A DNA stretch of 57,755 nucleotides. Origin: Chiloscyllium plagiosum (taxonomy: Eukaryota). The notes below the pieces were generated by a model, which searched no databases, had not been told where the DNA came from, and worked only from the letters and a program-made list of their open reading frames with translations. Where the stretch lies: positions 63,596,987 to 63,654,741 of the forward strand of contig NC_057718.1 of the NCBI RefSeq assembly GCF_004010195.1, read 5' to 3'. Position 1 is the first letter of the stretch; every line of letters begins with the position of its first letter. Of the stretch, positions 3,317 to 55,500 are shown one piece after another. The position numbers and the translations under genes were made by a program.

Positions 3317-3627
3317 CTGGAGACAAAAATAATGCAGATGCTGGAATCGAAAGTAGTCAAGCAGGAGGCTGGAAGAATACAGCAAGCAAGGCAGCATCAG
3401 GAGGTGGAGAAGTTAATGTTTCGGGTATAACTGTTCTTCAGGAATGGAGTTGGGGTAGGGGGAGCTACAGGTAAAGAGAGACCCCCCTCTCCCCACCCAA
3501 ACCATCCCCCTTTTTATCTGTAGCTTTCCCTCCACTCACCTCCATTCGTGAAGAAGGGTTATATCAGAAACATTGGCTTTTCCATCTCCTGATGCTGCCT
3601 GACTTGCTGTGTTCTTCCAGCCTCTTG
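3317..3627. mobile_element. Fold-back PLE mini-insertion (older) with 12-bp TSD
   Basis: Two inverted PLE termini with degenerate hammerheads, flanked by CATGAAATATTG (3305-3316) and CACGAAATATTG (3628-3639), which differ at one CpG position. Confidence 0.8.
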
Positions 3628-4189
3628 CACGAAATATTGAGAGTACTTCCAAGCTGGGAGATTTCTATTTGCCTCTTACATCAGGAATCTGCCTGCTGTT
3701 AATTAGGCAATGAGTCTCCTCTCTAGTGATTAAGTGGCCAATTCAGAAAAATCACAAGTGAATGCCATAGTCAGTGCTTCTGACCCCCATTTGGGCCCAA
3801 CAATGGGGTCCCAAAGCCCACCGGGAAAATTCTACATCTTACAATTTAATAATGATTTGCTTATATTTGGAGACATAGCCATAAAAATAGAAAGAAATTT
3901 AACAGTAAGAAAATAATTACTTGGCCTGCTGAACTTATTCCTTAATGTTAATTTCATCATACGATTTTAGTGTATTTTTAGCAAGCTCAATTTCATTGCT
4001 TCTACAATTTTAATCGGTTGTGTAGTTCTAATAATTATGATTACATTAATGTTGTTAAACAGATTTTTGATATACATTTTATATTTACTTAATGATTAAT
4101 GTTTATATATGGCCGGTCCTCTTTCCATGTTATGTTTTGAACAATCTGGGTTTATTTTATAACATTTAATGTCCTTGATAAATTATGGG

Positions 4190-4368
4190 CAGAAAACCAA
4201 GAGAGCAAATGTGGCCTCCATTTAATGTCCAATCCAAAAGATGGTTCCTCCAACAATGCAGTATTCCTAGTATAGGGTTGAAATTTTGGCTAAGACTTAT
4301 GTTTAAATCTCTGGAGTGTCATTGAACCATAACAGTTTAAATAAAAATGCCACCACAAAACCAAGACA
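4190..4368 (-). mobile_element. Ancient DeuSINE-like (SacSINE1/AmnSINE-type) fragment
   Basis: tttaatgtccaatccaaaagatggttcctccaacaatgcagtattcc...ttatgtttaaatctctggagtg...ttgaacc resembles the recalled Deu-domain and tRNA-head consensus in antisense. Confidence 0.55.
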
Positions 4369-4639
4369 CAGAGCGAATTTGACAGGCAGTGGAAAGTGCA
4401 AGCCAATGGGAAATTGGACATGATGGCTAAAATCTGCAAGGTGACAACATCAGCCAAATACAATTGCTCATCATTCTTAAAGTATCAAAGTTACTCAAAG
4501 AGAATTTTGGCTTGTTTTGCCATTTTTTTAAAAAAGAAAACAACACTTGGGACATATGATATTCATTTTTTTGTGACTTAGAAGTGTCTCATTTGTGATT
4601 TACTAAGTGTTCACTGCTACAACTTGTAGATTTTCCTGT

Positions 4640-5212
4640 CAGGCGATCCCATCATGGGGTGCCCATGCTTGTTGTACTTGTACTAATCTGACACATCCAC
4701 TGTAGCTCACCTGAAAACACTTATGTGGCATCTAATTATGTCCAAAGGTCGATCCCCCTTTCTGCTGCCCTTCGTTTTGCCTCAACAAGAGATCGCCATT
4801 GCTTTTCAGCTCCAATGAAATGGCCAAAATACTGACACTTCCTTTTCTGAATGACATTTTCTAGCTTCCACAAATTCGAGTTTCTCCACTTGTCTTGTGG
4901 TCCGCAAGTGGAACTTCTAGTATACGTCTTAGCATCTATATCCCAAAAGGCCTCTGTGTTCTTGTACAGATCTTTAATTTTTGTTCACATTTCGGAGGCA
5001 GACAGGAATGTGGACAGAGTGTGGCATCTTATGATGTTTCTTTGCTTGTTACAAGCTTGAGATTTCTTGCGTTAATGCATCTTTCATCTGCACAAAATTA
5101 CTTCTGGCTACATCGGTCTTTCTTCTAACTTCAGTGACCCATCATTTTGTTTTATCTTCATCATCTTAAATAGACAAACTTAGCTACTTGCAACTGTACA
5201 ATACCATCCACT
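4640..5212 (-). mobile_element. RTE-clade LINE, 3' part (old, degenerate)
   Basis: Minus translation across frameshifts gives VDG..QVAKFVYL, EVRRKTDVARSNFVQMK, RILEVPLADHKT and IQKRKCQYFGHF, which are RTE C-terminal motifs. Confidence 0.75.
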
Positions 5213-5214
5213 AC

Positions 5215-8200
5215 GAACCAAGGAACCAGAGTAGGCCACTTGGCCCTTCAAACTGCTTCATCATTCAATAAAATCATAGCTGATCTAATTTTAATCCCAA
5301 CTTCACATTCCTGCATATCCCGATAATCTTTCATCCCCTTGTAATCAAGAATCTATTCTCTACTGCCTTCAAAAATTTAAAGATTCGGTATCCACAGCCT
5401 TTTGAGGAAAGGAATTCCAAAATTATCAACCCTTTGAGAGAAAACAATGTCTCATTTCTGTCTTAAGTCAGCATCTCCATATTTTTAAAGTATAACCCTA
5501 GTTCTAAATTCTCAGAAAGAGGAAACATCCATTTGACATCCACCCGGTCAGGTCCCCTCAGGATCTTATATGCTTTAATTAAGTCTCCCCTGATTTTTCT
5601 AAAGTGGGCAGCACAGTGTCTGAGTGGTTAGCACTGCTGCCTCAGAACACCAGAGACCTAGGTTCGATTCCACGACGGGTGACTGTCTGTGTGGAGTTTG
5701 CACGGGTCTGCACGTGTTTCCTCCCAAAGTTTAAAGATGTGCAAGTTAGGTGCATTGGCCATACTAAAGTGCCCATAGTGTTCAGGGATGTGCAGGCAAC
5801 ATGAGTTAACCATGGCAAATGCAGGGTTACAGGGATAGAGTAAGGGGATGGGTCTGGATGGCTTGCTTTTTGGACAGTCGGTGTGGACCCGTTGGGCCGA
5901 ATGACCTGCTTCTGCACTGTAGGGATTCTACGATGTCCACAGGATTTAGGCCTAGCTTATCTAGCCTTTCTTCATAGAGCAATCTGTTCATTCTAGATAT
6001 CAATCTACCAAACTCTCTCTGAACTCTTTCCAATACATTAACATCTTTCTACAAGTACGGCAATCAATACCTTTTAACCTCACCAATGCCCTGAACACCT
6101 GAAACATCCTACTATGGAATTCAATTTCCCTTGCAATAAACCATAATATTCTATTAACTTACCTGATTACTTGCTGGACCTGCATACTAACCTTCTGCAT
6201 GTCATGCATTAGGCCACAGATATCTCCTCATTGTCTCACCATTTAGATAATATACATTTTTTTTCTGCCAAAATAGACAATGTCATACTTTCCTACATTG
6301 CACTCCATTTGCCAGATCATTGCCAACTCAACCTATCTATATCCCTTTGTTATCTCGTTGCATATTCTTCACAAATCATTTTCTTACTTAACTTTGTGTG
6401 TAATTGCTTGTGTAATCAAGCAATGTAGTTACAATATCTTCAAACCCTTCATATAAATAATTTGTATAAACCGTGCACAACTGAAGTCCCAGCACTGCCC
6501 TTGTGGTATACCATTCATTACATCTTACCAGCCTGAATAAAGACTCACTTATTCCTACTCTCTGCTTCCTGTTAGCCAGCTAATCTTCTATTCATGCCAG
6601 AATATTACTCCCGAGACCATGAGCTTTTATTTTCAACAATAATCTTTGACATGGCACCTTATCAAACACCTTCTGGAAATCTCTGCACAATACATCCATT
6701 GGTTCCCCTTTATCTACAGCACAAGTTACTTCTTCAAATAACTCCAATAAATTATTTAAACATGATATCCCTTTGACAAAACTATGTATCTAATTAGAAT
6801 AGGGAATTTGGATAAATTCAAGGTAATAATTTTAATAATAGCTTTTCCCTATGACTGATTTTAATCTAACTGGTGTATAGTTTCCTTCTTTCTAGTTCTC
6901 TCCCTTTTTGAATAAAAGAGTTACATTAACTATTTTCTAATTTAAAAATGAACTTTACACAAATTTAATCAGTTTTGGAAAATTGAAACCAATGCATCAA
7001 CTATCTCACTAGCTCTCCATCCTAGGGAAAAGACAACTACCATCAACTCTATCTATACCACTCATTGTTTTATAAACTTCTAACAGGTCGTCTCTCAACC
7101 TCCTATGCTCTCGTGAAAAAATCCTGCCTTTCTTTATAACTCAAACCTTTCAAAACCAGCAACACCCTGGTAAATCTCTCCAGCTTGATAATACCCTTCC
7201 TGTATCTGGAAGACCAGTTTTTTTCTATTCTGTCTAATCTTCTGACCTGCTACCTGTCTGCACAATTATATGTCTTTTTGTTAAGATTAATACTATCTTC
7301 AACTTTCTTAGTTAACCATGGATGGCGGGTCTATCTCTGAGAACCTTTCTTCCTTGTTGGAATATATCAATTCAGCGCTTTCTGGGATATCCCCTTAAAC
7401 TTTTGTCATGGCATCTCTATTGACCTATTACTCTAAGTTGCCAGTTCATTTTTGCTACTCTGCTTTCATGCTCTCATAACTGCCCTTGTTTAAATTCAGA
7501 CTAGTCTTGGGCCCACACTTCTCGCCCTTGAATAACATGTAAAATTCAATTATATCATTGTCGCAGAGATTTTCATTAAATTCTGAAATTAATCTTATTT
7601 CATTGGTCAAAACCAGGCCTAGCATAGCTTGCTGTCTGGTTGGTGCCATAAGAAATTCTCCGGAAAACATTTAATGAATTCTCCTCTAAACTATTTTTTC
7701 CAATCTGGCTTTTTTAGTCTTTAGATAGGTTAAAATGCAAGCATGATAATTGTTGTACCCTGTTGACAAGCTCCCATTATTTCTTCCTTGATACCATATC
7801 TGACCAAATAATTACTGTTAGGGGACCTGTACACAACTCCCACAAGTAATGACCTGTTTTATCATTCCTCATCTCCACCAGATCCTAGTTTCCTCAATTT
7901 AACTCATTCCCCCCTATTGTGTCAATATCATCTTCAATAAACAGAGCTACACCTCCACCATTTCCTTGCTTCTTGTTTTTCCTACATGTCATATACCATT
8001 CAATACCCAGGTCCTAATTTCAGTCATCCCATAGTCATGCCTCAGTTATGGTGACCAGATTGTACTTATTTATCTCAATTTATACTATTAGTTCATCATG
8101 TTTTGTTTTGAATGCTTCATGTATTCAAACCGTGCCTTAAGTTGTATCCTTTTATTATTGTTGTTACCTCTAGTCTTTTCTGCTGATTTGTTCTTAGATC

Positions 8201-9190: not shown

Positions 9191-9309
9191 TACCATTCTT
9201 AATGAGCTTTAATTAGTTACGTTATTTACTTTTTAACGCCAATTTTAAATGAGTTGTCTTCACTTTATTGCCAATGTATTGACAATTTTAAAACTTGAAA
9301 TAGATAAAA

Positions 9310-10120: not shown

Positions 10121-10249
10121 TGAAATGCTCAGCTTTACTTTCCTGCCTTTTCCCCATAACACTCAACTCCCCTCTGAGCGGGTAAGAAGGAGTGAACTAA
10201 CTCCCCTCTTTTCTACAATCTCAGTTAGTTACTTTTATCATGGGGCTAG

Positions 10250-12130
10250 ATCGTTCTCCAATCAAGTGTTACCAAGAAAATTCTCTGATGACATACATCT
10301 TTTAGCAACCAAAAGGCTGGAGACATGGAGAAGTCTAGGTGGAGTAAAGGTTGGTGAAACGTTTTAGATACAGGATAAAAAAAATCAATTTGCGTTGGGA
10401 TCCAGACCAAAGGGGTAGCCATTGGCACCCGCATGGACCCCAGCAATGCCCACCTCTTCGTCAGGTACTTGGAACAGTTCATCTTCCACAGTTACACCAG
10501 CACCATTCCACACCTTTTCCTCCACTACATTGATGACTGTATGGTGCCACCTTGTGCTCCCACCAGGAGATTGAACAGTTCATCACCTTCACAAACACCT
10601 TCCACCCTGCCCTCAAGTTCACCTGGACCATCATCTCGGACACCTCCCTCTCCTTCCTGGACTTCTCCATCATCATTTCCAGCGACCAACTCAACACGAA
10701 CATCTACTACAAACCCAACAACTCCCACAGCTACCTGGACTACACTTTCCCCCCACCCTGCCTCCAGTAAAAATGCTATCCCTTACTTCAAATTCCTCTG
10801 CTGCATCTGGTCCCAGAAGGACCAATACCACCACAGAACATCTCAAATGGCCTCCTTCTTCAAAGACCACAATTTCCCCTCCCACCTAGTCGATGATGCC
10901 CTCAAGCGTATCTCCTCTACTTCCTGCACCTCTGCCCTTGAACACCACCCCTCTAATCACAATAAGAACAGAGCCCCTTCAGTTCTTACCTTCCACCCCA
11001 TCAACCTCCTGAAACATTGCATCATCCTCCGCAACTCCCTTGTTAGGTCCACACCCCCCACTCCCAACACCTTCCATTGCCACTGCAAGAAGTGCAAAAC
11101 CTAAGCACACACCTCCCCCCTCACCTCTGTCCAAGGCCCCCAAAGGATCCTTCCACATCCGACAGAGATTTACCTGCATTTTCACACACGTCATCTACTC
11201 TCTCTGTTGCTCTCAATGTGGTTTCCTCTACACTGGGGAGACAGGACACCAACTTGTGGAGCGTTTCAGAGAACCCCTCTGGGACACAGGCACTAATTAA
11301 CCCCACTGCCCTGTGGCCAAACAATTTATCTCCCCCTCCCACACCGTCAAGGAGGGCCTTCTCCACCGCCAAAATCTATCCACCCAAAAGAATAACGTCT
11401 CATCTTCCACCTTGGGACCCTCCAACCATGCAGGATCAATGTGGATTTCACCAGTTTCCCTATTTCCCCTCCCCCCATCTTCGCCCAGATCCAACCTTCC
11501 AACTTGGCACCACCCTCTTGAATTGTCCTACCTGTCCATCTTCCTTCCCACTTATCTGCTCCACCCTGATCAATTACCTTCTCCCCACCTTCATCTACCT
11601 ATCGCACTCTCAACTACATTCCCACAGGCCCCATTCCCCTCCAATTTATCTCTCAGCCCCCTTGGGCTGTGCCCCCATCCTTCCCCACCCACTCCTGATG
11701 AAGCGTTTATGCTCGAAACGTTGACTCTCCTGCTCCTCGAATGCTGCCTGACCAGCTGTGCTTTTCCAGCACCGCACTCACCGACTCTGAAGTGGACAGA
11801 AATTCAAATCATCCACTTGTGGAAACAATTAAACTGAAACTGAAGATACCAGAAAAGAAAATGCCACCATTTAGACTCTGAGATGTTTAAGGATGAATCA
11901 GAGAGGCCCTTTTTTTTGTTTTAAAAAATTGAATATTTCAGATTTGAAGAATTAGAACAAATTGAGTTCTTGGGAAAAAAAATTAGAAAGCAACTGGAAA
12001 AACATGAACCAAAGTATACAATTTACCACAAAGGAAATATTACCAAAACGGAAAAGACAGAGACAAGAGGTGAAGTCTGCATAAGAAAGATGAGAGTAGG
12101 AAGACAAAAATTACTAATAAATGTAATGAC
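10250..12130 (+). mobile_element. RTE-like APE endonuclease end and linker, split by the PLE (pieces about 10250-10398 and 11790-12130)
   Basis: KRLETWRSLGG...KRFR, then NSNHPLVETIKLKLK (SDH-like) and FEELE...LESNWKNM...EILPKRKRQ. Confidence 0.5.
10399..11789 (+). mobile_element. Penelope-like element, 5'-truncated (RT, GIY-YIG, pLTR)
   Basis: QTKGVAIGTRM...LFLHYIDD, then IYYKP and the GIY-YIG motif VIYSLCCSQCGFLYTGET. Hammerhead-like CTGATGA(11695)...GAAACGTT. Frameshifted. Confidence 0.92.
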
Positions 12131-12404: not shown

Positions 12405-15400
12405 TTAAGATAATCGAGCAGAATTAGGCATTCAGTCCATCAAATCTGCTCTGCCATTCAATCATGGCTTATATGTTTCTCAATCCCATTCTCCTGCCTT
12501 CTCTTTGTAACCCTTCTCCTTTATAAATCAAGAACTTACCTATCTCCGTCTTAAAGACATTTGGCTTCCACAGCCCTCTGGGGCAATAGGTTCCAAAGGG
12601 TCACTATCCTCTGAAATTCCTATTCATCTCAGTTCTAAAGGGTCATCCCTTCACTCTGAAGCTGTGTACTTAGGTCCTAGTTCTCGCCTATTCGTGGTAA
12701 CATCTTTACCACACCAACTTTATCCAGGCCTCTCAATACTCTAAGTTTCAATGAGATCTCCCTCATGCTAAATTCCATCGGATATACACCCAGAGTCCTC
12801 AACCGCTCCTCACATGACAAACCCTTCATTCTTAGGATTATTCATGCAAACCTCCTCTGGACCCACTCCAATTCCAGCACATCCCCTTTCTTAGAAATGG
12901 GTCCAAAACTGCTCCCAATATTCCAAATGCAGTCTGACCAGAGCCTTACATCACTGTTCTTGTATTTAAGATCTCTCGAAATGAATGCTAACATTGCAAT
13001 TGCCTTCAAAACTGCCAATTAGGCCTACAGGTTACCTTAAGGAAAACTGTGAAATAAGACTCCTAAGTCTCTTTATGCTTCAGATTTCCAAAGCCTTTCT
13101 CCACTTAAAAATAGCTTACTCCACTATTTGTCACATCAAAATGCATAACATCACACTTTCCCACATGGTATTGCATCTGCCACTTCTTTGACCACTCTCC
13201 TAGCCTGTCCAAGTCTTCAGCAGCCTCCCTGCTTCTTCAACAGTAAACATCGCTCCACCTACCTTTGTGCCATCTGAAAACTTAGCAACAATGCCCATAG
13301 TTCCTTCATCCAGATCGTTAATATATAACGTGAATAGTTGTGGTCCAACACTGATCTCTGTGGAATTCCATTGGTTGCAATCCTGAAAAAGACCACTTTA
13401 TTCCCACTAAACAAAAAAAACCAAAGAACTTCTGGAAATCTGAAACAAAAACAGAAATTGCTGAAGAAAGTCAGCAGATCTGGCAGCACTTGTGTAGAGA
13501 AAGCAGTCTGCTCTCCTCTGTCCAACTTTCTCGTTACCTCCTCAAAGAATTCTAACAGATTTGTCAGGCATTACTTCATTTTGAAGAGGTGCTGACTCAG
13601 CTCTATTTTACCTTTCACTTCCACATACTCCATAATCTCATCCCTATTAATGGACTCTAAAAATCTTACTGACAACCAAGGCCAGGCTAACCAGTCTATA
13701 ATTTCCTGTCTGCTGCCACCCTCCTTTCTTAAACAGGGATGTTACACCAGTCAGTTTCTAGTCCCCTAGGACTCTCCCTGACTCTAGCAATTCCTGAAAG
13801 ATCACATCCAAAATATCTGCAGCTATATCCATTAGAACCCTGGGGTGTGGTCCATCTCGTCAAGCTGAATTATCCACCTACAGACCTTTCAGCCTACCAG
13901 CTCCATCTCCTTAGTAATGGCCAATATACTCACCTTTGCCCTCTGACTCTCGAGGTTCTGGTATGCTACTGATGTCTGCCACCATTAAGACCGATCCAAT
14001 GTACCTATTCAGTACCTGCGCCATTTTTGTATCCCCATTCTACTTCTCCACCCTCACTTTTCACCAGTCCAATGTTCACTTTCATTTTTTAGATATCTTT
14101 AAAAACACTCTTACAATCTACTATAATATTACTAGGTAACTTACCCTAGGATTTCATCTTCTCCCTCTTATTGCTTTTTAGTTGTCCTCTGCTGGTTTTT
14201 AAACACTTCTCAATCTTTTGGCTTTCTACTAATCTTCACCAAATTGCATGCTTTTTCTTTTACTTTTCTGCTGTTCCTACTTCCCTTGGCAGCCCTTAGT
14301 ATGTTTGTTATTCTTTGGGATAAATTTCTGTGGTGCCTCACATTGCTGCACCAGCATCTTCCATGCTAGGTTCCCTTTCAAATCAACTCTGGCCAACTCC
14401 CCCCTCATGCCTTTGTATTTACCTTTACTCAACTGTAAAAGCATTTCATCTGATTCCAGTTTCTCCCTCTCAAACTGCAGGGTGAACTCTATCATCATAT
14501 GGTCACTGCCTGCTACAGGTTTCTTCATCTTAAGCTCACTAAACATGTCTGCCTTACACTTTACTAAGTCCAGAATTGCCTATTCCTTACTGTGCTCTAC
14601 CGCAAGTTGCTCCAAAAACATAATCGCGTAGACATTCCACAAAATTATTTTCTTGATCTGCTACCAACCTGATTTTTCCCAGCCCACCTGCATATTGAAA
14701 TCCCCCATGATTATTTCTAACATGCCTTTTCTATCTCCCGATTTATTTTCTACCCCTACATAATTCCCATTAGAGTCTTTTTACTTTTGTGGTTCCTCAA
14801 CTCTACCCATGCACACAGATTCATAATTTCCAATCTTATATCACTGTTTGCTCTCAATTTAATTTAATTTCTTACTAATAAGACAACACTGATTCCTCTG
14901 CCCGAGCTTTCAAAAGGACGTGTATCCTTGGATAATCAGTTCTTAGCCCTGATCCCCTTGTAGCCACGTCTTGGTGATGCCCACAATATCGCACTTGCCA
15001 ATTTAAATCTGCATTATAAGCACATTTATCTGGCTTTGTAAACTCTAAGTGTTTAAGTACCACACCCTCAGTCCTGCACTGACTGCTCCCTTCTCATACT
15101 TCTTCCCTTGTCTGCTGTGGCTGAAGTTGGATTCTTCACCCTTTTGATACTCTGACTTATTACTTATTCTGGAAACTTTGATAATCTCTCCTGAACTCTC
15201 ACTCTTTAACTAGTCAAAGTCCTGTAACCACCCTATTTAGCCTTTCCACTAGTCCCAGACCAGCTTAAGTGGAGCCAGTCCCAATGGTCCAATTATTTCT
15301 TGTTCCAGTACTGATGCCAGTGCCCCACAAAATGAAACCTCTCTTTCCTACACCACTCCTTTAGCCACAAGTTTACTTGCCTAATCTTATCTTTTTGCCA

Positions 15401-15700: not shown

Positions 15701-16202
15701 ATTCATATTTAGTTTTGTTTTTAAAGTGAATGACATAAAACAGAAGCAAAATAAAGTGCTTGATTTTTTTCAAATGTACATTTTGGAGAGGCCGACACAA
15801 TTTTCTCTAAAATTATCCAAGTAGAAGGAGAGTTTTAAAACATCGCTAAAATTTTTTGAATTGTCGAGGAAGTCTTTAAATTGTGTTTAATTTTTTAAAA
15901 ATGGAGCTTTCAGAAAGGCCGACACATGGACAGCTCTGGAGTGAAGAATAAAAGCTGTCAGATGGACCACTTGAGCAGGAGCTCTTTTTAAAATTTAATT
16001 GTTCAGCTAAGTGCTCATTTTATTTAAATTTTGGAGATTTGATTTTTTTTTTGTTTGCATGCTTAGCATTAATTCTTTGGATAAGGACAGCTAGTTTATT
16101 TTATATATAGGGTGCTATTGGAAGCTACTTCTTGTTAAGATGAATGTCACTGAGGGCATATAAGAGACACAGAGTTTGATGGCTAGGAGACTTAGAGAAG
16201 GT

Positions 16203-16523
16203 GGGCGGCACGGTGGCACAGTGGTTAGCACTGCTGCCTCACAGCGCCTGAGACCCGGGTTCAATTCCCGCCTCAGGCGACTGACTGTGTGGAGTTTGCA
16301 CGTTCTCCCCGTGTCTGCGTGGGTTTCCTCCGGGTGCTCCGGTTTCCTCCCACAGTGCAAAGATGTGCAGGGTCAGGTGAATTGGCCATGCTAAATTGCC
16401 CGTAGTGTTAGGCAAGGGGTAAATGTAGGGGTATGGGTGGGTTTCGCTTCGGCGGGTCGGTGTGGACTTGTTGGGCCGAAGGGCCTGTTTCCACACTGTA
16501 ATGTAATCTAAAAAAATCTAAAA
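16203..16523 (+). mobile_element. Very young HE1-like V-SINE
   Basis: CpGs retained (gggcggcacggtggcacagtggttagc...cccgggttcaattcccgcc), (TCTAAA..) tail, possible AAGGT TSD at 16198-16202 and 16524-16528. Confidence 0.95.
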
Positions 16524-25798: not shown

Positions 25799-26025
25799 TG
25801 GGTGTAGGTTTGCTCGCTGAGCTGGAAGGTTCATTTTCAGATGCTTCGTCACCATAATAGATAACATCTTCAGTGAGCCTCCGGATGAAGCTTCATCCAG
25901 AGACTCACTGAAGATGTTTCCAGTATGGTGATGAGACATCTGAAAATGAACCTTCCAGCTCAGCGAGCAAACCTACATCCAGAATGTCAACCTGAGTTAT
26001 AAATCTTCTCCAAATTCGCTGTTTA
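25799..26025. mobile_element. Fold-back PLE mini-insertion (third family) with 9-bp TSD
   Basis: Arms of about 90 bp centred on GGATGAAGCTTCATCC. Each arm has a degenerate CTGAAGA-hairpin-GAAAC-like motif. CTGATAATG at 25790-25798 and 26026-26034. Confidence 0.8.
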
Positions 26026-35438: not shown

Positions 35439-35521
35439 CATCCATGGCCAACTTATGTGGTGGAATTATTAGTTTAAATCCTTACAGAACACATATTTGT
35501 TAATATTTGGGAGTGGGAAGG

Positions 35522-41309: not shown

Positions 41310-41436
41310 GAAACAAAGAACTGCGGATGCTGAAAACCTGAAACAAAAACAGACTCCGCTGCAGAACCTCAACAGGTCTGGCAGCATCTGTGACAGAAAC
41401 AGTTAATGTTGACACCAGTGACCCTTCTTCAGAACT
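41310..41436 (-). mobile_element. PLE terminus fragment with degenerate hammerhead
   Basis: Reverse complement gttCTGAAGAagggtcac... followed by the PLE tail. Confidence 0.7.
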
Positions 41437-41744
41437 CTTCTTCAGCAACTAAATGAATCAAAAGCCATGAAAAATTATCTATCTTCTCACTGACATCATT
41501 TGTTCAAAGAACATCTGAACCTGTGCATCGAAACAGTACTAGACTTCAGTACATGAAGGATAAAGAATCTGACTTAAATTAGAGCAACAATGACCCTAAT
41601 CTCAAATCTTTCTCTTACCTCTGACTGGTGTAGTTATTCACAAATGAACATTTTAAATTATCAACTAGAATCGAGGCCGTGATGTATGAAATCATGCAGA
41701 ATACACAGTATAGGAAAATCAGATGCCAGCTGAATTTTATAAAG

Positions 41745-42758
41745 TCAGAAAACACACACCAGGTTATAGTCCAACAGGTTTATTTGAAACCACAAGCTTT
41801 CAGAGCACTGCTCCTTCATCAGGTGCAGTGAAAAGAAGTACACAGGCACAGAATTTATAGGCAGAGAAATCAAAAGATCATAGAAATGGTTGAAGTGGAG
41901 TGTCGACAGGCTGAATAACAAGTCTCTAGATAACCAAAAGTGTCAGACAGTGTGAGTAAAGTGTCAACAGCAGAATAATTGAGGCAGAGAGATAATTACA
42001 AAAAAATACAAATAAGGTGGTGCTGGAAACAAACCAAATGGCTGAAATGACATGACAGGTTATAGCAGTATACAAGGGACTAACCAAAGTAACAAGTAAT
42101 CCAAAACTTTACAAACTAATTAAGGTAGAAACTTCATAATAAGTTATGGGTTACGTGTAGCATGACATGAACCCAAGATCATGGTCGAGGCCATCTTCAT
42201 GGATACAGAACTTGGCTATCAGACTCTGCTCGGTGATTCTGTGATGTTGTGCATCTCAAAGGCTGCCTTGGGGATGCTTACCTAAAGACCGGATGCTGAA
42301 TGTCCTTGACCGCTGAAATGTTCCCCAACTGGGAGGGAACATTCCTGTCTGGCGATTGTTGTGCAGTTTCCATTCATCTGTTGCCATAATGTCTGAATGG
42401 TCTCACCAATATACCAAGCCTCGGGGCATCCTTACCTGCAGCGTATGAGGTAGACAACAGTGGTCAAGTCACAGGAGTACCTGGTTGGTAGTGTTCCCAT
42501 GTGATGGTAGTATCCACACCAATGATCTAGTGTGTCTTGCAAAGGTTGCCATGGCATGGTTGTGTGATGTGGTCGATATTGTCCTGAAGGCTGGGTAGTT
42601 TGCTGTGCACAATGGCCTGTTTAAGGTTTGGCAGTTGTCTGAAGGCGAGAAATGGAGATATTTCCAGTTTTTCCCCAGGGCAGAGAAACTACGCCATGCT
42701 CTTTGCGGCCTTCAACATGTCTTCCAGGACAACTAACATCTTGCCAAGATCATGCCGA
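41745..42758 (-). mobile_element. Penelope-like element (GIY-YIG, pLTR) with inverted 5' segment
   Basis: Minus 42660-41745 reads LAFRQLPNLKQ...VVYLIRCR.GCPEAWYIGET...VGEHF, with hammerhead CTGATGA-AGGAGC..GCTCT-GAAAGCTT at about 41791-41825. Plus 42665-42758 reads FPRAEKLRHALCGLQHV..HLAKIMPT, the segment immediately upstream. Confidence 0.85.
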
Positions 42759-43039: not shown

Positions 43040-44716
43040 TGAGTCATAGAGATGTCCAACCCGTCCATGCCGACCAGATATCCCAACCCAATCTAGTCCC
43101 ACCTGCCAGCACCAGTCCATATCCCTCCAAACCCTCCCTATTCATATACCCATCCAAATGCCTCTTCAATGTTGCAATTGTACCAGCCTCCACCACTTCC
43201 TCTGGCAGCTCATTCCATACACGTACCACCCTCTGTGTGAAAAGATTGCCTCGTAAGTTTCTTTTATATCTTTCCCCTCTCACCCGAAACCTTTGCCCTC
43301 TAGTTCTGGACTCCCCGACTCCAGGGAAAAGACTTTGCCTATTTACCCTATCCATACCCCTCATAATTTTGTAAACCTCTATAAGGTCACCCCTCAGCCT
43401 CCGATGCTCCAGGGAAAACAGCCCCAGCCTGTTCAGCCTCTCCCTGTAGCTCAAATCCTCCAACCCTGGTAACATCCTTGTAAATCTTTTCTGAACCCTT
43501 TTAAATTTCACAACATCTTTCCGATAGGAAGGAGACCAGAATTGCACGCAATATTCCAACAGTGGCCTAACCAATGTCCTGTACATCCGCAATATGACCT
43601 CCCGACTCCTGTACTCAATACTCTGATCAATAAAGGAAAGCATACCAAACACCTTCTTCACTATCCTATCTACCTGCGACTCCACTTTCAAGGAGCTATG
43701 AGCCTGCACTCCAAGGTCTCTTCCTAGGACCTTACCATTAAGTGTATAAGTCCTGCTAAGATTTGCCTTCCCAAAATGCAGCAGCTCGCATTTATTTGAA
43801 TTAAACTCCATCTGCCACTTCTCAGCCCACTGGCCCATCTGGTCAAGATCCTGTTGTAATCTGAGGTAACTCTCTTCGCTGTCCACTACACCTCCAATTT
43901 TGGTGTCATCTGCAAACTTACTAACTGTACCTCTTATGCTTGCATCCAAATCATTTATGCAAATGACAAAAAGTAGAGGACCAGCACCGATCCTTGTGGC
44001 ACTCCACGGGTCACAGGCCTCCAATCTGAAAAACAACCCTCTACCAGCAACCTCTGTCTTCTCCCTTTGAGCCAGTTCTGTATCCAAATGGCTAGTTCTC
44101 CCTGTATTCCATGAGATCTAACCTTGCTAATCAGTCTCCCATGGGGAACCTTGTTGAACGCCTTACTGAAGTCCAGATAGATCACATCTACTGCTCTGCC
44201 CTCATCAATCGTCTTTGTTACTTCCTCAAAAAAAAACTCAATCAAGTTTGTGAGACATGATTTCCCACGCACAAAGCCTTGCCTTTCCAAATACATGTAC
44301 ATCCTGTCCTGAAGAAGGGCTTATGCCCGAAACGTCGATTCTCCTGCTCCTCGGATGCTGCCTGGCCTGTGTTTTTCCAGCATCACATTTTTCAACTCTG
44401 GTACTCCAGCATCTGCAGTCCTCACTTTCTCCTTCAGGATTCCGTCCAACAACGTGCTCACCACCGACATCAGGCTCACTGATCTATAGTTCTCTGGCTT
44501 GCCCTTCTTAAACAGTGGCACCACATTAGCCAACCTCCAGTCTTCCAGCACCTCACCTGTGACTATCAATGATACAAATATCTCAGCAAAAGGCCCAGCA
44601 ATCACTTCTCTAGCTTCCCACAGAGTTCTCGGGTACAGCTGATCAGGTCGGGGGGATTTATCCACTTTTATGCGTTTCAATACATCCAGTACTTCCTCCT
44701 CTGTAATCTGGACATT
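43040..44716 (-). mobile_element. Relatively young CR1 LINE, 5'-truncated
   Basis: 347-aa ORF 44087-43044 with INDLD..SKFADDTKIGG..LEYCVQFWSP; upstream DFSKAFNKVPH and NYRSVSL. Frameshifts present. Confidence 0.95.
44309..44432 (+). mobile_element. Solo PLE terminus starting exactly at the hammerhead core, inserted in CR1
   Basis: catcctgtc|CTGAAGAAGGGCTTATGCCCGAAACGTC...ctcactttctcc|ttcaggattcc. The uninterrupted CR1 at 19156-19175 reads atcctgtccctcaggattcc. Confidence 0.88.
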
Positions 44717-45167: not shown

Positions 45168-45383
45168 GGGTAAAAACAGATGCTGGAAACCAGATTCTAG
45201 ATTAGAGTGGTGCTGGAAAAGAACAGCAGTTCAGGCAGCATCCAAAGAGCAGGAAAATCGACATTTCGGGCAAAAGCCCTTCCTCTATTCCTGATGAAGG
45301 GCTTTTTCCCCAAACGTCGATTTTCCTGCTCCTCGGATGCTGCCTGAACTGCTGTGCTTTTCCAGCACCACTCTAATCTAGAA
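45168..45383. mobile_element. Fold-back PLE mini-insertion with 14-bp TSD
   Basis: Inverted arms of about 90 bp meeting at the hammerhead core. TCATATTCTAAACA at 45154-45167 and 45384-45397. Confidence 0.9.
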
Positions 45384-49110: not shown

Positions 49111-50582
49111 GATTTTAAATGATCAATCTTCTCTCCTCCAAGAGAAATAGCGCAACTTTGCTCAACGTTCTAAGATTTAAATATTTTAGGCGTGATAGAG
49201 AGGGAAAGCAAAACAGCACGGGAGTTCCATTATTGATAAGAGAGACTATCATAGCTGTACTGAGGGAGGACACTTGGAAGGTCCATCCGGTGAGGCCATA
49301 TGGGTCGAGCTCAGGAACAGGAAGGGTGCAAATCACTTTGATGGGATTGTGCTACAGACTTCCCAACAGCCAACGGGTGACAGAAGAACAGATATGAAAA
49401 CATGTCAAAACAATAGGGTTGTTGTGGTTGGTGATTTTAACTTTCCCTATACTGACTGGGGCTTGCTTAGTGTTGGGGGCTTGGAAGAGGGAATTTGCCA
49501 GATATGCCCAGGATGGTTTTTTGAAACAATATGTAAATAGTCCAAGTCGTGTTGGGGAATGAACCAGGCCAGGTGATCAAAGTTTCAATGGAAGAGTATT
49601 TCAGGAACAGTGATCATACTTTTCTGTCAGCTTTAAGTTACTTAAGGATAACGAGTAAGAGTAATCCCTGGGTGAAATTACTGAACTGAGGGAAGGCTAA
49701 CTATCACAATATTAGGCAGGAACTGGGGAATGTAGATTAGGCATGGGTGTTTGAGGGTAAATCTAAATCTGGCATGTGGGAATCGTTTAGAAGTGAGCTG
49801 ATTTAGACTTCAGGACCAGCATGTTCCTGTGAAATTGAAGGACATGGATGGCAAGATTCAGGAACCTTGGATGACAAGAGAAATTGAGAGCTTAGACAAA
49901 AAGAGAAAGGAGACATTGGTACGGTTTAGGAGAAATGAAGACAGAGTGCTCGAGAATACAAAGTCAGCAAGAAAGAACTCAAACAAGGGATTAGGAAGGC
50001 TAAAATGGGCCATGAAATTTCTTTGGCAAGGTGATTAAGGAAAATCCCAAGGCATTTTACATACATATAGGAGCAAATGGGTAGCTAGGGAAAAGGGTAG
50101 GTCCACTGAAGAACAAAGGAGGGAATTTGTATGCAGTCAGAGGAAGGAATTAAAGTCCTTAAGGAATACTTTGCATCGGAATTCATAAAGGAAGAGGAAA
50201 TAGTGGATGAGGAGCCTGGAGAGGGTAAATTGATATTCTCAGGTATGTCAAAATGTTAAAAATATGGTGGGGGGAATCCAAGATGGCAGCGATCTAGGAG
50301 GATCGCATTGCAGAGCTCCACACTGCAGCACAAGCGGCACAAACTTCTAACCTGCCCAGCCCAGACCATTGCAATATCCTGGGACTCTGGAAAGGTCGTG
50401 GAGTCCAAGGAAATTGTGGAAAATCAACTTACCCCCGTTTTCGCCATTCAGGGATGCCGAAGAAGGGAGGAGTAGTGTCCAAGGCCCAGCCTGCAGGATC
50501 CTTGGACTTGATTAACTAAAAGGCTCAGGTGAAGGAGCTTGCAAAATCTCGTGATATGTTGGGTAAGCAGATAGAGGAGAAG

Positions 50583-50823
50583 GGGGGGATTCTGGATTAG
50601 AGTGTTGCTGGAAAAGCACAGCAGTTTAGGCAGCACCCGAGGAGCAGAAAAATCTACGTTTCGGGCAAAAGCCCTTCATCTACCTGGTATTCCTGATGAA
50701 GGGCTTTTGCCCGAAACGTCGATTTTCCTGCTCCTCAGATGCTGCCTGAACTGCTGTGCTTTTCCAGCACCACTCTAATCCAGAATCTGGTTTCCAGCAT
50801 CTGCAGTCATTGTTTTTACCTAC
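50583..50823. mobile_element. Fold-back PLE mini-insertion with 15-bp TSD, inside L1 ORF1
   Basis: CAGATAGAGGAGAAG at 50568-50582 and 50824-50838. Inverted arms of about 90 bp; same family as 45168-45383. Confidence 0.92.
50688..50725 (+). ncRNA. Minimal hammerhead ribozyme motif
   Basis: CTGATGA(50693-50699)-A-GGGC tttt GCCC-GAAAC-GTC, core intact. Confidence 0.7.
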
Positions 50824-52436
50824 CAGATAGAGGAGAAGTGGCCCCGATCACTATCATGCTGCAGAAGCATGAACAGCAGCACGACCTGGAGAGAAGGATG
50901 GATGAGGTTGAACAGAGTCACAGTGGTGGAAGCAGACACCAGTTCCTCCAATGATAGGATTCAAGCCCTGGAGACGCAGGTCCGTAATTTGCGTTACCAA
51001 GTGGATGACCTTGAGAACAGGGGCAGGAGAAAAAAAAAATATTTGGATCGTTGGTCTGCCAGAGGGCAAGGAAGGTGATCGACCAGCAGAATTTATTGAG
51101 TACTCGTTGCCGAAATTCCTTAACTTGGAGGCTGGATTGAGAGGATCAAGGGGGCTCACCGGATCACGGCACGGAGATCAGGTCTAGGTCAACGTCCTCC
51201 TCCTCTCTTGGTGCAGTTTCATCATTATAGAGATAAAGCAGAGAATCATGGAAGCTTCCAAAATCCAGGAGATGGACCCGAAGATCCTGGTTTACGAGGG
51301 CTCTAAGATAATGTTCTTCCAGGACTTCTCAGCGGTGGTGATCCAGAGAAGAAAATTCTATGACAATGTCAAGACTGAGGGAGCTTGGGTTCCAGTACTG
51401 GGAGATATCCAGCAGTGCTTCATATCACCTTAGATGGATCTGGACATTTCTTTGACACGTCAGAGAAGGCAACAGACTTCAAGGTCAAATTAACTTAATC
51501 TGAACAAATAGTAGTGCTGTTTGGGTATGTCTTTGTTTTTTCTTTTGAAAAAAAGAGCAAGTCCGTTGGGTTTTCTTTTACTTTTTTTATTGAAAATAAT
51601 CTGGTTTAAACAATGTTTGGTGGCGGTTGAGATGTGTAATTTTAATTTCTAAGTTAAGCTATACCAAAAGATGGGTGGGGTATTTACCCCTTTCTTTTTA
51701 TTTTTAAGATTTATTTTTCACATTGCTATTCCATGGTGTATTTTCTTTCTTTTCTGCTTGTGTTTGCAGTGTGGCTCTAGCTAGGAGGAGGGAAAATGGT
51801 TGGAATGGCTAGATGCCTACTTACAGGTAGTTTATACCCGGTTCAGGTATTTTCAGGCAGAGGGATGGGAAATTGGGTTTTGGGATGGGTAGTTGCCCCC
51901 TTTGGGTGGGGATGGTGGTCTGCTCTCCTATTCAGCACCATTGGCGCTGTATGCGTTGGCTTGTTTTTTGGTTTTTATTGTACGTAGTCTTTGATAGCTT
52001 TGTAGGTTTGTTAACTGTAGTGGTTTTAGTTTATATAGTTTTTATGTTCAATGAATCTTGTGACACAAAGGCTCAGCAATTTGTGGTTCAAGTTCCTCCT
52101 CTCTGGAATTTCAATGTTACTGCAGAAGGTTTTGGCTAATGACTTGATTAAATGGTGTATGTGGAACACCAAGGGGAGTCACTCACCAATTAAGAGGAAG
52201 AAGGTACTTTTGAGTCTTTGAAAGGAGAAGGTGGATATTGCTTTATTACAGGAGACACGCTTGGATGATAAGATAACAGAATGGCTTTGATCAGGTTTAC
52301 TTTTCATCTTTTAATACTAGATGTAGGGGAGTGGCTATATTGGTTAGGAGGACTCTCCCATTTAAGTTAACACACTCTAGTAAAGATTTAAATCACACAA
52401 CACCAGGTTATAGTCCAACAGGTTTAATTGGAAGCA

Positions 52437-52471
52437 CACTAGCTTTCGGAGCGACGCTCCTTCATCAGGTG
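52437..52471 (-). ncRNA. Minimal hammerhead ribozyme motif (minus arm, sense to PDE10A pre-mRNA)
   Basis: Exact reverse complement of 52543-52577. Confidence 0.78.
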
Positions 52472-52542
52472 ATTGTGGAGGGCTCGATTGTAACACAGAA
52501 TTTATAGCAAAAATTCTGTGTTACAATCGAGCCCTCCACAAT

Positions 52543-52577
52543 CACCTGATGAAGGAGCGTCGCTCCGAAAGCTAGTG
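52543..52577 (+). ncRNA. Minimal hammerhead ribozyme motif (plus arm)
   Basis: CAC-CTGATGA-A-GGAGC gtc GCTCC-GAAA-GCTA-GTG: stem I CAC/GTG, 5-bp stem II, palindromic AGCT stem III. Confidence 0.78.
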
Positions 52578-55500
52578 TGCTTCCAATAAACCTGTTGGAC
52601 TATAACCTGGTGTTGTGTGATTTTTAACTTTGTACACCCCAGTCCAACACCGGCATCTCCAAATCATAGTAAAGATTTGTAATCCTCAAAGCCCTGATAA
52701 ACACGGAGAATATGGTGTTTTAAATGTTTATTGCCCTCCGGCCCATCCCCTCAAATTTCTGGTAGATGCGTTCTCTAAACTGATCAGTCTCCAGTCTCGG
52801 CATATCATTATAGGGGGAGATTTTAACTGTCTCATGGATCCCACAGTAGACAGGTTGCCCAAAGGCCCCTCAATACTCTCTGTACAAACTAAACAATTAG
52901 TGGATCTATGTGTGGAGTTAGGGTTGGTGGACGTCTGGAGGCATCTCCACGCTATAGGCAGGGATTTTACATTTTTTTTCCAATCCACACAGGTGTCACA
53001 CCAGGATTGATTTTTCTCTGACCCCATGGCAACCCTTGACTTGGTGGCATCTTGTATGATTGGTAATATTATCATCTCCGATCACGCTCCAATTGGCTAA
53101 GATTAAAGAAGTTACAGTGGGTCCGAAGCACTGACAAACGGATCCCTTTATCCTCAAGGATAATAAGTTTGTGGAGTACTTCTCTAGGGAATTTTGGGCG
53201 TTCCTAGATATTAACTCAGGCTCAGTTATTAGCCCATCCCTTCTTTGGGAAACTGCCAAAGCCTATGCCTAGTTATTTCCTACTCTGCCAGTAGGAAGTG
53301 GCAGAAAGGTGAGCACTAACCTCTCCTTGAAGCACGGTTGAAGGCAGCTGAGAAGGCCTACTTCTTCAGGCCCTCGTTGGTCATGCTAGAGGATTATGGC
53401 ACTGCGGTCTGCATTGAATGCCATGTCACACAGACAGCAAAGAAGGAGCTCATCTTTACAAAGCAAAGGTTATATGAGCATGGTGACAGGCCAGGCAAAT
53501 ACCTAGCATATCTCGCCAGGAAAAGGAGTACCCCTCAAGCCATTACGGCGATTAGGGAGGGTATGGGAACCTAACATGTGACACCAATGAGATTAATGTG
53601 GCATTCCAGAGATTTTACTCTAAGTTATACCAATCTGAGGGTTGTGAGGAAGGGTGGGCCAAAATGGAATATTTTTCAAGGATATGGAGCTCCCGGGAAT
53701 GACCCCTGAACACAAGTCTTTTCTCAATGCCCCCTTATCAGAGCATGAGGTGCAGGAGGCTGTGAAGCAGCTTCAGAGTGGAAAGGCACCCAGTCCTGAT
53801 GGACTTCCCATTGAATTCTATAAGGAATTTATAAATATATTGTCAGGCTCGATGCTCAACATGTTTAATGACTCATACTGTCATGATTGTCTCCCGCTAT
53901 CTCTGAGAGAGGCCAATATTTCACTTATTCTTAAAAAAAAAGGAAAGTCCCCGAGGACTGTGCTTCATACATGCCCATTTCACTCTTAAACAAGGACTTT
54001 AAAATCCTCTCTAAGACTCTTGCGTTAAGGCTAGACACTGTTACCTTCTATTGTTAAAGAGGACCAGACAGGCTTCATAAAGGGGCCGCAGATCCTCCAA
54101 TAATGTTAGGAGGCTGCTTAATGTAAGTCAAGTGTGTCACCAACAGCCAATACAAGGATCGGTGCAGAGAAGGCACTTGACTGAGTTGAGTGGCTGTACC
54201 TTTTCTAAACTCTGGAGTGGTTTGGTTTGGGTGAAGTCATATAAGATGGGTAAAGGTTCTCTACAGTGGCCCTCTCACTGCGGTCATCACCAATGGGGTA
54301 TGATCAATTAATTTTAACATATTTAGGGGCAGCTGGCAGGGCTGTCCCCTTTTGCCCTTTTTTTTACACTGATGATTGAACCATTGGTGGAGGCCATTTG
54401 TAGGGATCCCAATATATCAGCTCCAGAAGTGGGGTCAAAATTACATAGGATTTCGTTGTATGCGGATGATGTCCTAATTTTTTGACAAATCCAACATTTT
54501 CAGTGCCTCGCCTGATACAATGCATCAGTGCGTTTGGCACCTTTTCAGGGTACAAGATTAATCTTGCATAATCAGAGGCTATGCCTATGGGTGGTCTTAC
54601 AAAGGGGCTAGGTCTTGAGGGCGACTATAGATTCCCATTTAAGTGGTCACGGGGGGGGTTTGTGTATTTGGGCATATTCATTACTCCAGTTCTGGATCGG
54701 TTGTTCAAAGTTAATTTTGTTCAATTATTTGACAAAATCAAACAAGACCTTCAAAGATGGGAGGCGCTTCTGGTCTTGTGGTTGGGTCGAATAGCGCTTA
54801 TTAAGATGAATATTCTCCCCCATGTATTATACAGATGCTCCGCCTGATTTTCGATATTGTCAAAATTTAAACCAAGGGTATCTTCAACACGTCCCAAGTG
54901 CAATTTGGTACGGGCACTCTTACCCATTGCCTCTGGCTGTGTGGTAGGCTTTAAACATATTGAAGTGCTGTGGCGGGTGCAATGGAGGGAATTTTGGGTG
55001 TAAGGGTGGAGAAGATCCCGGTCTCTCTTCTTCTTGGCCTGCCCAGTATGTTCCCTGCCGATGTGCAGAAGAAAGAAAACTTTTCAACATTCTCTCTTTC
55101 TGTGCAAGAAAGGATATCTTGCTAGGTTGGGTATCCGAAAAACCCCTGGTCTGTTGGGTTGGCGGAAGATTGTTATGGAGCATATCCCCTTGGATTTTCT
55201 CATAAGTGTGGTACACCACGAAAATTAGAATTTCTATAAGAAATGGCAACCCTTTTTTGGAATACCTGGACACAGATTTATTTGCCACACTAATAAGGAC
55301 TTTTAATTAACTGTAACAATTGTGCTTTATGAGTCTAATATCCGGGGAGGAGGAACTGCAAACATACGAGTGTCTTGTTTGGCTGAGTTAAGTTATTATT
55401 ATTTATTGTTGTTGATTATTATTTATTTAGTTAAATAGCTAGTTGGGTTTTTAAATATATATAGAAAAATATATATTAATTACATTTGTACATGAGGGCA

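Follow-up and report, generated by a model that had tools for sequence, protein, structure and literature searches.

The window, i.e. the whole stretch of 57,755 nt that was analysed (Chiloscyllium plagiosum, GCF_004010195.1, NC_057718.1:63,596,987-63,654,741, forward strand), holds five fold-back hairpin insertions per 57.8 kb together with other, mostly decayed copies of Penelope-like elements (PLEs) (Table 1). The five hairpins had been predicted from the letters alone and are real: inverted repeats were found at every position, with arms of 71-93 nt at 85-99% complementarity in an inverted-repeat search and of ~93-120 nt with gapped alignment. The layout is the same in all five, two copies of a PLE 3' end lying head to head, and, as had been claimed, in each copy only one of the arms has an additional 3' tail (45, 44, 25, 36 and 43 nt in hairpins 1 to 5). 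The short tail of hairpin 3 (45168-45192) has a 9-nt deletion compared to that of hairpin 4. Three terminus types, here families A, B and C, were confirmed among the hairpins, and ages differ, since arm-to-arm identity spans ~82% (3317) to ~99% (52390), hairpin 5 being the youngest copy. Hairpin 4 is inserted in ORF1 of an L1-like element, and hairpin 5 in the endonuclease region of the same element.

Table 1. Hairpins, target site duplications (TSDs) and other PLE copies, in positions of the window.
Feature	Position	Strand	Description
Hairpin 1, family A (old subfamily)	3317..3627	-	arms ~82% alike
Hairpin 1, tailed arm	~3317-3480	minus	45-nt tail 3317-3361
Hairpin 1, tailless arm	~3481-3627	plus	inner ~28 nt are native upstream sequence absent from tailed arm
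Hairpin 1, TSD	3305-3316/3628-3639		12 bp, 1 mismatch
Hairpin 2, family C	25799..26025	+	tailless arm 25799-25890; tailed arm 25891-26025; tail ~25982-26025
Hairpin 2, TSD	25790-25798/26026-26034		9 bp
Hairpin 3, family A	45168..45383	-	tailed arm 45168 to ~45282, minus strand, beginning inside hammerhead core
Hairpin 3, tailless arm	~45282-45286 to 45385	plus	begins 5-9 nt before core
Hairpin 3, TSD	45154-45167/45384-45397		14 bp; partner's first 2 bases also fit arm end
Hairpin 4, family A	50583..50823	+	G run 50583-50587; tailless arm 50588-50680, beginning inside core
Hairpin 4, tailed arm	50688-50823		tail 50788-50823; intact minimal hammerhead core
Hairpin 4, TSD	50568-50582/50824-50838		15 bp; short G run between TSD and arm
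Hairpin 5, family B	52390..52666	+	tailless arm 52390 to at least 52507; tailed arm 52511-52666; tail ~52624-52666
Hairpin 5, TSD	52378-52389/52667-52678		12 bp
Family-A PLE remnant, decayed	10380..11790	+	RT, CX2CxxC linker, GIY-YIG region, then family-A 3' terminus
Family-B PLE remnant, decayed	41738..42700	-	CX4CxxC-like linker (one C replaced), GIY-YIG 42479-42273, 3' region, family-B terminus
Family-A copy, ~490 bp	55761..56320	+	5' end with inverted 62-70 bp copy of internal endonuclease-coding sequence
Family-A 3' end with inverted RT segment	3..677		3' end ~303-677 plus; RT-coding 299-3 minus, running past window edge
Solo family-A stub without inverted arm	44304..44431	+	begins just before CUGAAGA box

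All five hairpins are flanked by TSDs of 9-15 bp, as the original prediction had it, that of hairpin 1 with one mismatch. An identical search over 300 random 250-bp spans gave scores of at least 12, 10 and 9 in 0, 5 and 8 spans respectively, and three of the five TSDs clearly exceed chance because no random span reached a score of 12. The TSDs of the older hairpins (3317 and 25799) are modest by score, yet they lie exactly at the arm ends. In the empty-site comparison, divergence of the second L1-like copy in the window prevented its alignment over the hairpin insertion points.

Two decayed remnants tie the hairpins to coding PLEs. The terminus of the family-A remnant (10380-11790) is 86% identical to the hairpin-4 arm over 81 nt, and the remnant aligns to the RT and GIY-YIG of P0071 and P0055 (endonuclease part, E 7e-15 and 1e-14); the terminus of the family-B remnant (41738-42700) is 84% identical to hairpin 5 over 92 nt, and its 42479-42273 segment aligns to the GIY-YIG of P0071 (E 6e-7). 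P0071 itself scores above the Pfam cut-off for both RVT_1 and GIY-YIG, and Pfam gave no match for the window's own short, decayed PLE pieces. Families A and B are, by these alignments, the 3' ends of GIY-YIG (EN+) PLE remnants. The CX2-5CxxC linker motif that defines Neptune/Nematis-type PLEs (PMC8557442) precedes GIY-YIG in family A and, with one cysteine replaced, in family B; by this motif both are of Neptune/Nematis type, a label in which we leave Neptune and Nematis unseparated. Family C (25799) has neither a second copy nor a coding parent within the window, and its assignment to PLEs is putative, resting on a decayed hammerhead motif, the tail and the geometry. The family-A pattern matched 0 stretches in viral contigs, and the family-B pattern 0 stretches in prokaryote genomes.

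Altogether we counted 13 PLE-terminus copies in the window: five terminal hairpins, two with inverted internal segments and six plain. The coexistence of these three forms speaks for a continuum of insertion forms. The copy at 55761-56320 is a sixth fold-back, but its inverted part is no terminus copy, while that at 3-677 has the head-to-head architecture of the hairpins with very unequal arms. Among 81 homologues of its RT piece (3-299) at E<=1e-10, cartilaginous-fish proteins score best, and one carries RT and GIY-YIG. The copies at 55761, 310 and 44304 showed no TSD, and L004 and L010 no convincing one.

The hairpins had been described as hammerhead-bearing, which is true of three of the ten arms and not of the other seven, which are truncated or mutated. 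By pattern search and direct reading, counting as intact a conserved core with an extra base after A9, G10.1-C11.1 and a palindromic 15.2-16.2, intact minimal PLE hammerhead cores lie at 50693 plus (the CUGAUGA of hairpin 4, with a predicted cut after 50720) and in both arms of hairpin 5 (52546 plus and 52468 minus). The hammerhead is decayed in both arms of hairpin 1, and the GAAA box is mutated in both arms of hairpin 2. Like the minimal PLE hammerhead, the motif has CUGANGA, one extra base, G10.1-C11.1, GAAA and a palindromic 15.2-16.2, without helix III; helix I has 2 bp in family A and 3 bp in B and C, compared to 4-5 bp in typical minimal PLE hammerheads, a 2-bp variant having already been described in D. 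virilis. Rfam returned no hammerhead family at E<=1, only microRNA models below their gathering scores, and seven hammerhead regions folded freely in isolation had z-scores of -1.24 to 0.95, motifs this small making the z-score uninformative. In folding of the isolated arm, stem II pairs with a probability of ~1.0 (hairpin 4) or 0.53 (hairpin 5), falling to 0.000 in the whole element. Minimal hammerheads act as dimers (PMC4209133), and the two hammerheads of a hairpin lie on opposite strands, so the dimer that they need would not form. The pLTR would thus simply carry the hammerhead along, and the long hairpin stem is predicted to sequester it.

We then compared the junctions. Hairpin 2 has no loop but a 6-bp palindrome at its centre, with each arm beginning 17 nt before the CUGANGA box; in hairpin 4, seven unassigned bases (50681-50687) separate the arms. 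Across the five copies the loop lies on the tailless arm in three, on the tailed arm in one, and one is a tie. As an example, hairpins 3 and 4 (45168 and 50583) had been said to share their short-arm end and almost the same fold-back point. The common short-arm end is there, and is expected because two fixed RT start sites have been described for PLEs (PMC11167929), but the fold-back junctions differ: the unpaired loop is part of the tailless arm in hairpin 3 and of the tailed arm in hairpin 4. The tailless arms of hairpins 1, 3 and 5 bear native upstream sequence that is missing from their tailed partners. Since the tailless arm thus extends further upstream in 3/5 copies, the junctions favour two-ended priming over one cDNA folding back.

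The four arms of hairpins 3 and 4 differ at 13 columns, with a single informative site (50781) that is T/T versus C/C by locus; both states are common family variants in short-read contigs. Within-copy distances are 6 and 6 of 90, and between-copy distances 4-10 of 90. At this one informative site the arms group by locus; the within-copy distances are not below all between-copy ones. The original prediction had proposed comparing loops, breakpoints and arms, and this check, as far as it could be run, came out contrary to a self-propagating family.

Short-read contigs from three species were also searched for fold-back joints (84,745, 91,515 and 110,972 contigs mapped to family A; X4 and X20 counted in part). 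Among the 15 joints listed of 75, none exceeded 17 contigs, 13 were opposite-strand joints with coordinates all different, and the hairpin 4 junction was absent. The best of these 15, with 9, 8 and 17 contigs, was that of 50689 with 50726, which recurs in all three species, in a count that can merge junctions with up to 40 letters between them. Because de Bruijn assembly can conceal perfect palindromes, a perfect hairpin at high copy number would escape this search. Depth in X4, a sum over contigs not taken as a copy number, was ~6,800 over the hairpin 4 loop bases versus 8.8-19.3 million over the arm. One raw RNA run with the same species label covered both orientations at similar depth, with one read in the opposite-strand joints listed, and showed no pile-up of ends, which is a weak test of self-cleavage. 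An A-to-I strand bias appeared in 8 of 11 A>G/T>C variants (among 40 of 154 variants listed; p=0.11); a claim of RNA editing was dropped because the remaining types of change were equally elevated in RNA.

Taken together, the five hairpins look like heavily shortened PLE 3' ends that are rebuilt at every insertion, and not like a new self-copying ribozyme element. The inverted pLTR with tail and TSD is an already published PLE architecture, and the evidence favours an origin of the hairpin anew at each insertion rather than its copying as a unit. Of the two possibilities first put forward, support thus goes to the one in which PLEs commonly leave such abortive TPRT products, with junctions that differ between hairpins 3 and 4. 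We give a probability of about 0.7 to the reading that each hairpin is one dead-on-arrival EN+ PLE insertion, built during integration and not copied as a hairpin. In such an event the GIY-YIG endonuclease would place nicks 9-15 bp apart on the two target strands and so produce the observed TSDs; both-strand cutting is described for an anole PLE, Poseidon (PMC11167929). Both 3' ends would then prime RT on PLE RNA, the outer start probably giving the tailed arm and the inner start, 35-45 nt upstream of it, the tailless arm. Both cDNAs would stop after the ~90-170 nt observed, often near the hammerhead. Finally, one cDNA may fold back and be extended into a plus strand able to anneal to the other cDNA, or microhomology may join the ends; such joining would leave inner ends within 0-28 nt of each other and a loop on either arm. 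The same geometry is found in three families of different age, which favours this reading. Against it, inner ends are near-coincident and, in family A, clustered near the hammerhead 5' edge, which two independent random truncations would not predict. Inverted PLE insertions have precedents (PMC8557442, Fig. 2 legend; PMC3846280; PMC11167929; PMC4209133), and how PLEs make inverted repeats is presented as an open question in PMC8557442.

The clustering of inner ends could also arise if hairpins were rebuilt each time but from a dedicated short non-coding RNA (mini-PLE or retrozyme-like) reaching from the hammerhead 5' edge to the tail, so that both cDNAs run off one RNA 5' end. Counted from the core's first base, the inner ends of family A fall at -5/+2 (hairpin 4), -5 to -9/+2 to +5 (hairpin 3) and ~-1 (solo 44304), whereas the starts of hairpins 1, 2 and 5 are 17-67 nt upstream of it and the same termini occur in long copies. 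Eleven of the 13 opposite-strand joints listed have one end at 50686-50694, a cluster at 50689 that is partly an edge effect, because the reference stretch has native sequence only from ~50688. For one family in another animal, two of six informative copies start 3 and 5 nt ahead of the core, with two more contigs that break 4 nt ahead of it. An initiator-like YYANWYY motif overlaps the hammerhead 5' edge. Against this, the one RNA run has no site with many molecule starts, in a 3' single-cell polyA library that cannot test 5' ends. Non-autonomous PLE derivatives are published (PMC8557442; 10.64898/2026.07.22.740005), and still we regard such an RNA as an unlikely source of the hairpins. A single tail-primed cDNA that folds back and is copied, its second arm trimmed at the tail boundary by the endonuclease, would agree with the locus-specific base common to both arms at 50781, with the near-coincident inner ends, with the palindromic centre of hairpin 2 and the loop on the tailed arm of hairpin 4, and with the self-priming on an antisense template argued for in PMC3846280. 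It is nonetheless improbable: the native upstream bases of the tailless arms of hairpins 1, 3 and 5 cannot derive from the tailed cDNA, nor can the inverted piece at 55761, and the RT-coding inverted segment 3-299 far less so.

The MITE-like ribozyme class amplifying as a unit, the second possibility put forward at the outset, went unsupported. A master hairpin transcribed and retroposed whole would suit the high local density (5 in 57.8 kb), the common subfamily and short-arm end of hairpins 3 and 4, and the joint found in all three species; but these two hairpins differ in junction letters and have opposite loop polarity, their arms pair by locus, and the recurrent joint is small and may merge different junctions. 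Each of the three unrelated families would require a master of its own, and the ribozyme would be sequestered, its opposite-strand copies unable to form the required dimer (PMC4209133); we consider unit copying highly improbable. True MITEs moved by a DNA transposase recognising the inverted arms would likewise be short and non-coding, with inverted repeats and TSDs. Here TSD length varies from 9 to 15 bp, not the fixed length of MITEs, the tailed side does not end in the inverted repeat and the arms are retroelement 3' ends, leaving this reading with almost no credence.

The value of these copies is mechanistic and practical, the architecture being known. Many tiny, TSD-bounded fold-backs of varied age make a natural data set on how PLEs form inverted repeats, in which two-ended priming can be told apart from self-priming without an experiment, by the way the loops point, by how far the inner ends are offset and by trees of the arms; the present five lean to two-ended priming. 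Such hairpins are prone to be miscalled as MITEs or microRNA precursors, and intronic ones are possible sources of long dsRNA. In the doubtful case that a very short non-coding RNA, starting at the hammerhead 5' edge, parasitises the PLE families of sharks and is copied by the PLE enzyme from both target ends, it would be a non-autonomous retroelement, linear as RNA and hairpin as DNA, its palindrome regenerated at each insertion, with on the order of 100,000 long dsRNA-forming hairpins per genome (a figure extrapolated from window density, not counted).

In L1 twin priming, cDNA is primed from both ends of the target, which yields an inverted 5' segment, a TSD and junction microhomology, and the inverted piece is usually upstream sequence and no duplicate; unlike this, both arms of our hairpins cover one terminus. 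The literature searched held no title on miniature PLE hairpins in sharks, and Repbase and Dfam, outside this search, may hold such consensus sequences. Pairs of opposite-strand hammerhead motifs ~100-700 bp apart have already been noted in Schistosoma. The hairpins resemble non-LTR retrozymes (Cervera and De la Pena 2020, PMC7229834; Li et al. 2026, 10.64898/2026.07.22.740005) in being short, non-coding and PLE-related with a type I hammerhead. However, retrozymes are head-to-tail tandems with same-strand hammerheads, whereas our hairpins are head-to-head with hammerheads on opposite strands; none of the four tandem repeats found in the window is a head-to-tail hammerhead array.

The closest biochemical relative is Poseidon of Anolis carolinensis studied in vitro (Frangieh et al. 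2024, PMC11167929), for which cutting and extension of both target strands are described, with two RT start sites that bound the tail and hammerhead cleavage that is dispensable for insertion; the paper reports no start-site difference between strands and, in its relevant parts, offers no model of inverted insertions. Families A and B have a Neptune/Nematis-type linker, unlike Poseidon. EN+ PLE units in which an inverted copy accompanies a 5'-truncated copy with a 30-40 bp tail are published (Craig et al. 2021, PMC8557442, Fig. 2 legend; Arkhipova et al. 2013, PMC3846280). Our hairpins share with them the head-to-head inverted copy, the one-sided tail and the junction palindromes, with tails of 36-45 nt (25 in hairpin 3, through its deletion) and TSDs of 9-15 bp compared to 8-10 bp in published rotifer PLEs. 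They differ from these units in that both copies are only 90-170 nt long, so that the whole insertion is an ORF-less hairpin, and in being dense.

All five fold-back insertions lie where the original prediction had placed them, as repeat searches and gapped alignments revealed. Their arms, inverted copies of the 3' end of a Penelope-like element (PLE), are ~93-120 nt long in gapped alignments, stand head to head and are directed outward; they are the five strongest of the 16 inverted repeats that a repeat finder detected in the window. The other predicted traits were found as well: a direct repeat of 9-15 bp bounds every copy, only one arm carries a 3' tail, and at least three terminus types (families A, B and C) are involved. 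Random spans put through the identical TSD search scored at least 12 in 0/300 cases, at least 10 in 5/300 and at least 9 in 8/300. The expected differences in age are mirrored in arm identities of ~82% to 99%, and hence hairpins of three sequence families kept forming over a long period. In hairpin 4, the short run of G (50583-50587) that separates the TSD from the tailless arm looks non-templated, as do seven unassigned loop bases (50681-50687), which form a small palindrome with adjoining bases.

Features of the window and related copies; inner ends are relative to the first base of the hammerhead core (tailless/tailed arm)
Feature	Coordinates or locus	TSD	Tail (nt)	Inner ends	Remarks
Hairpin 1	3317-3627	12 bp, one mismatch	45	~-67/-39	family A
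Hairpin 2	25799-26025	9 bp	44	-17/-17	family C
Hairpin 3	45168-45383	14 bp	25	-5 to -9/+2 to +5	family A
Hairpin 4	50583-50823	15 bp	36	+2/-5	family A
Hairpin 5	52390-52666	12 bp	43	at least -39/-35	family B
Sixth fold-back	55761-55892				62-bp arms, 98% complementary; internal endonuclease-coding sequence
Inverted RT-coding PLE segment	3-299 (minus)				head-to-head with PLE 3' end 303-677 (plus)
Fourth terminus family	13413-13506, 41318-41450, 56850-56990 (all minus)				decayed hammerhead
Solo family-A stub	44304-44431				begins just 5' of hammerhead core; within CR1-like element, opposite strand
tRNA-like-headed SINE copies	3105-3247, 5601-5921, 16198-16500, 28342-28630, 32216-32566
PLE-like hammerhead copies, other animals	L004, L010, L014, L003, L015				metagenome loci

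Hairpins 4 and 5, of different families, sit ~1.6 kb apart in one L1-like element (~50300-53000), in ORF1 and the endonuclease region respectively. Hairpin 1 adjoins a copy of the tRNA-like-headed SINE, which resembles the shark HE1 SINE. A 130-bp tandem duplication (35181-35439, 98% match) lies immediately upstream of ORF1 of a second L1-like element.

A decayed element at 10380-11790, alignable to RT and GIY-YIG domains of full-length homologues and with a CX2CxxC linker, has the family-A sequence as its 3' end; the 3' end of a minus-strand remnant with a GIY-YIG region (41738-42700) is of family B. Both can be classed as Neptune/Nematis-type PLEs under the linker definition of PMC8557442. 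No parent element of family C was found within the window. Of 123 candidate homologues of the in-frame RT piece at 3-299, 81 reach E<=1e-10, and the top named hits come from carpet sharks and rays; the full-length homologue P0071 carries RVT_1 and GIY-YIG, both above Pfam cut-offs. A self-search counted 13 PLE-end copies in the window: the five terminal hairpins, two with inverted internal segments (55761-55892, and 3-299 against 303-677) and six plain ones. Three of the latter form the fourth terminus family, of putative PLE origin as judged by sequence similarity; its stub at 41318-41450, which has no inverted arm, may be flanked by a TSD of 12 bp (one mismatch). A family-A copy of 490 bp has the sixth fold-back at its 5' end, and the inverted piece extends a few bases more upstream than the sense copy; a TSD sought for this copy was not found. 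The other end of segment 3-299 is beyond the window.

The description "hammerhead-bearing" is generous: the motifs match the minimal PLE hammerhead of PMC4209133 (CUGANGA, one extra base, G10.1-C11.1 and GAAA, with a palindromic pair replacing helix III), but pattern search and direct reading find the core intact in only 3 of the 10 arms. Helix I has just 2-3 bp, and an Rfam search returned no hammerhead match. In folds of hairpins 4 and 5, stem II has a predicted probability of 0.000 in the whole element and of ~1.0 (50583) and 0.53 (52390) in the isolated arm. Since the two motifs of a hairpin lie on opposite strands, they cannot form the dimer needed by minimal hammerheads. The hammerhead is best read as a passenger. 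Minimal hammerhead pairs ~100-700 bp apart on opposite strands were already noted for Schistosoma in PMC4209133.

Could the hairpins amplify as a MITE-like unit? The pair 45168/50583, the strongest case for this in the original prediction, belongs to one subfamily and has a common tailless end, as predicted, but the near-identical fold-back point did not stand: centres and junction letters differ, and the arm starting 5 nt before the core is tailed in 50583 and tailless in 45168. Their four arms hold 13 variable columns, 12 private and one informative (50781); the arms group by locus at this one site only, and each of its two states is frequent in the family. Within-copy raw distances (6 and 6 of 90) fall inside the between-copy range (4-10). 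Differing junctions, together with this single-site grouping, argue against unit propagation.

With a query spanning loop, tailed arm and flank of hairpin 4, the three DNA contig sets, each under its own organism label, placed 84,745, 91,515 and 110,972 family-A contigs (partial counts in X4 and X20) and one RNA run placed 2,670 reads, so the family is very large. Among the 15 of 75 joint rows listed, in which junctions with <=40 letters between them may be merged, 13 are opposite-strand joints, each with a different position pair; the best joint is supported by 9, 8 and 17 contigs whose depths add up to 171, 151 and 593, ~10x the unique-flank depth (16, 13 and 69). Depth in X4 is ~6,800 at the loop bases versus 8.8-19.3 million on the arm. 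A high-copy fold-back junction in the family is disfavoured, with the limits that perfect palindromes may be hidden in short-read contigs and that native sequence in the query starts close to position 50689. Loose ends behind 50780 (446, 402 and 451 contigs), running through a few family letters into AT-rich, low-agreement sequence, suggest that the tailless end is a common one in the family. Family-A RNA (X21, 50681-50860) occurs in both orientations at similar depth; its A>G/T>C changes have a weak, non-significant strand bias (8/11 rows among 40 of 154 variant rows listed, p=0.11).

Formation anew from PLE RNA is the preferred reading. The two inner ends lie 0-28 nt apart in all five hairpins, a closeness that independent truncation would not predict. 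In 3/5 copies (3317, 45168 and 52390) native upstream sequence absent from the tailed arm is present in the tailless one, which so cannot be solely a copy of the tailed cDNA. According to PMC11167929, a PLE protein can cut both target strands and extend them, initiates reverse transcription from two positions that delimit the tail and can dispense with hammerhead cleavage; the two-strand cutting and two start positions would explain why the copies have a TSD, a tail on one side only and a common short-arm end. PMC3846280 describes PLE copies that have inverted pLTRs, a tail of 31 bp and TSDs of 9-10 bp, and argues for self-priming. We envisage that cDNA would be primed at both target ends and that either cDNA could fold back, its plus-strand copy pairing with the other cDNA, a joining step that we infer.

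That a short RNA beginning at the hammerhead edge serves as template seems to us improbable, yet the 5' ends in metagenomes (a small sample) and those of family A keep this reading alive. Sixteen metagenome loci, probably host DNA of other animals, match the hammerhead pattern. An inverted arm occurs in 2 of the 14 with upstream sequence (L004, ~590-800; L010, ~655-800), and a search for TSDs at both gave none convincing. In one family of eight loci, four continue upstream, two have their 5' ends 3 and 5 nt ahead of the core, and two contigs break 4 nt before it. YYANWYY is the initiator consensus; an initiator-like motif at 50687-50693 (counterparts: 548-554 and 56190-56196) shares bases with the 5' strand of family-A hammerhead helix I and coincides with the site of several family-A 5' ends.

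Literature searches listed no paper on miniature PLE hairpins in sharks; supplements, figures, Repbase and Dfam may already contain such families. We conclude that the five hairpins exist, are abundant and for the most part ordinary: they represent a known PLE insertion architecture in miniature. An inverted truncated copy plus tail is the typical PLE structure in PMC8557442, and the hairpins match it, in agreement with one of the two predicted alternatives, an abortive PLE product. Non-LTR retrozymes, in contrast, are head-to-tail arrays (10.64898/2026.07.22.740005); the window has no such array, and the hairpin arms meet head to head.
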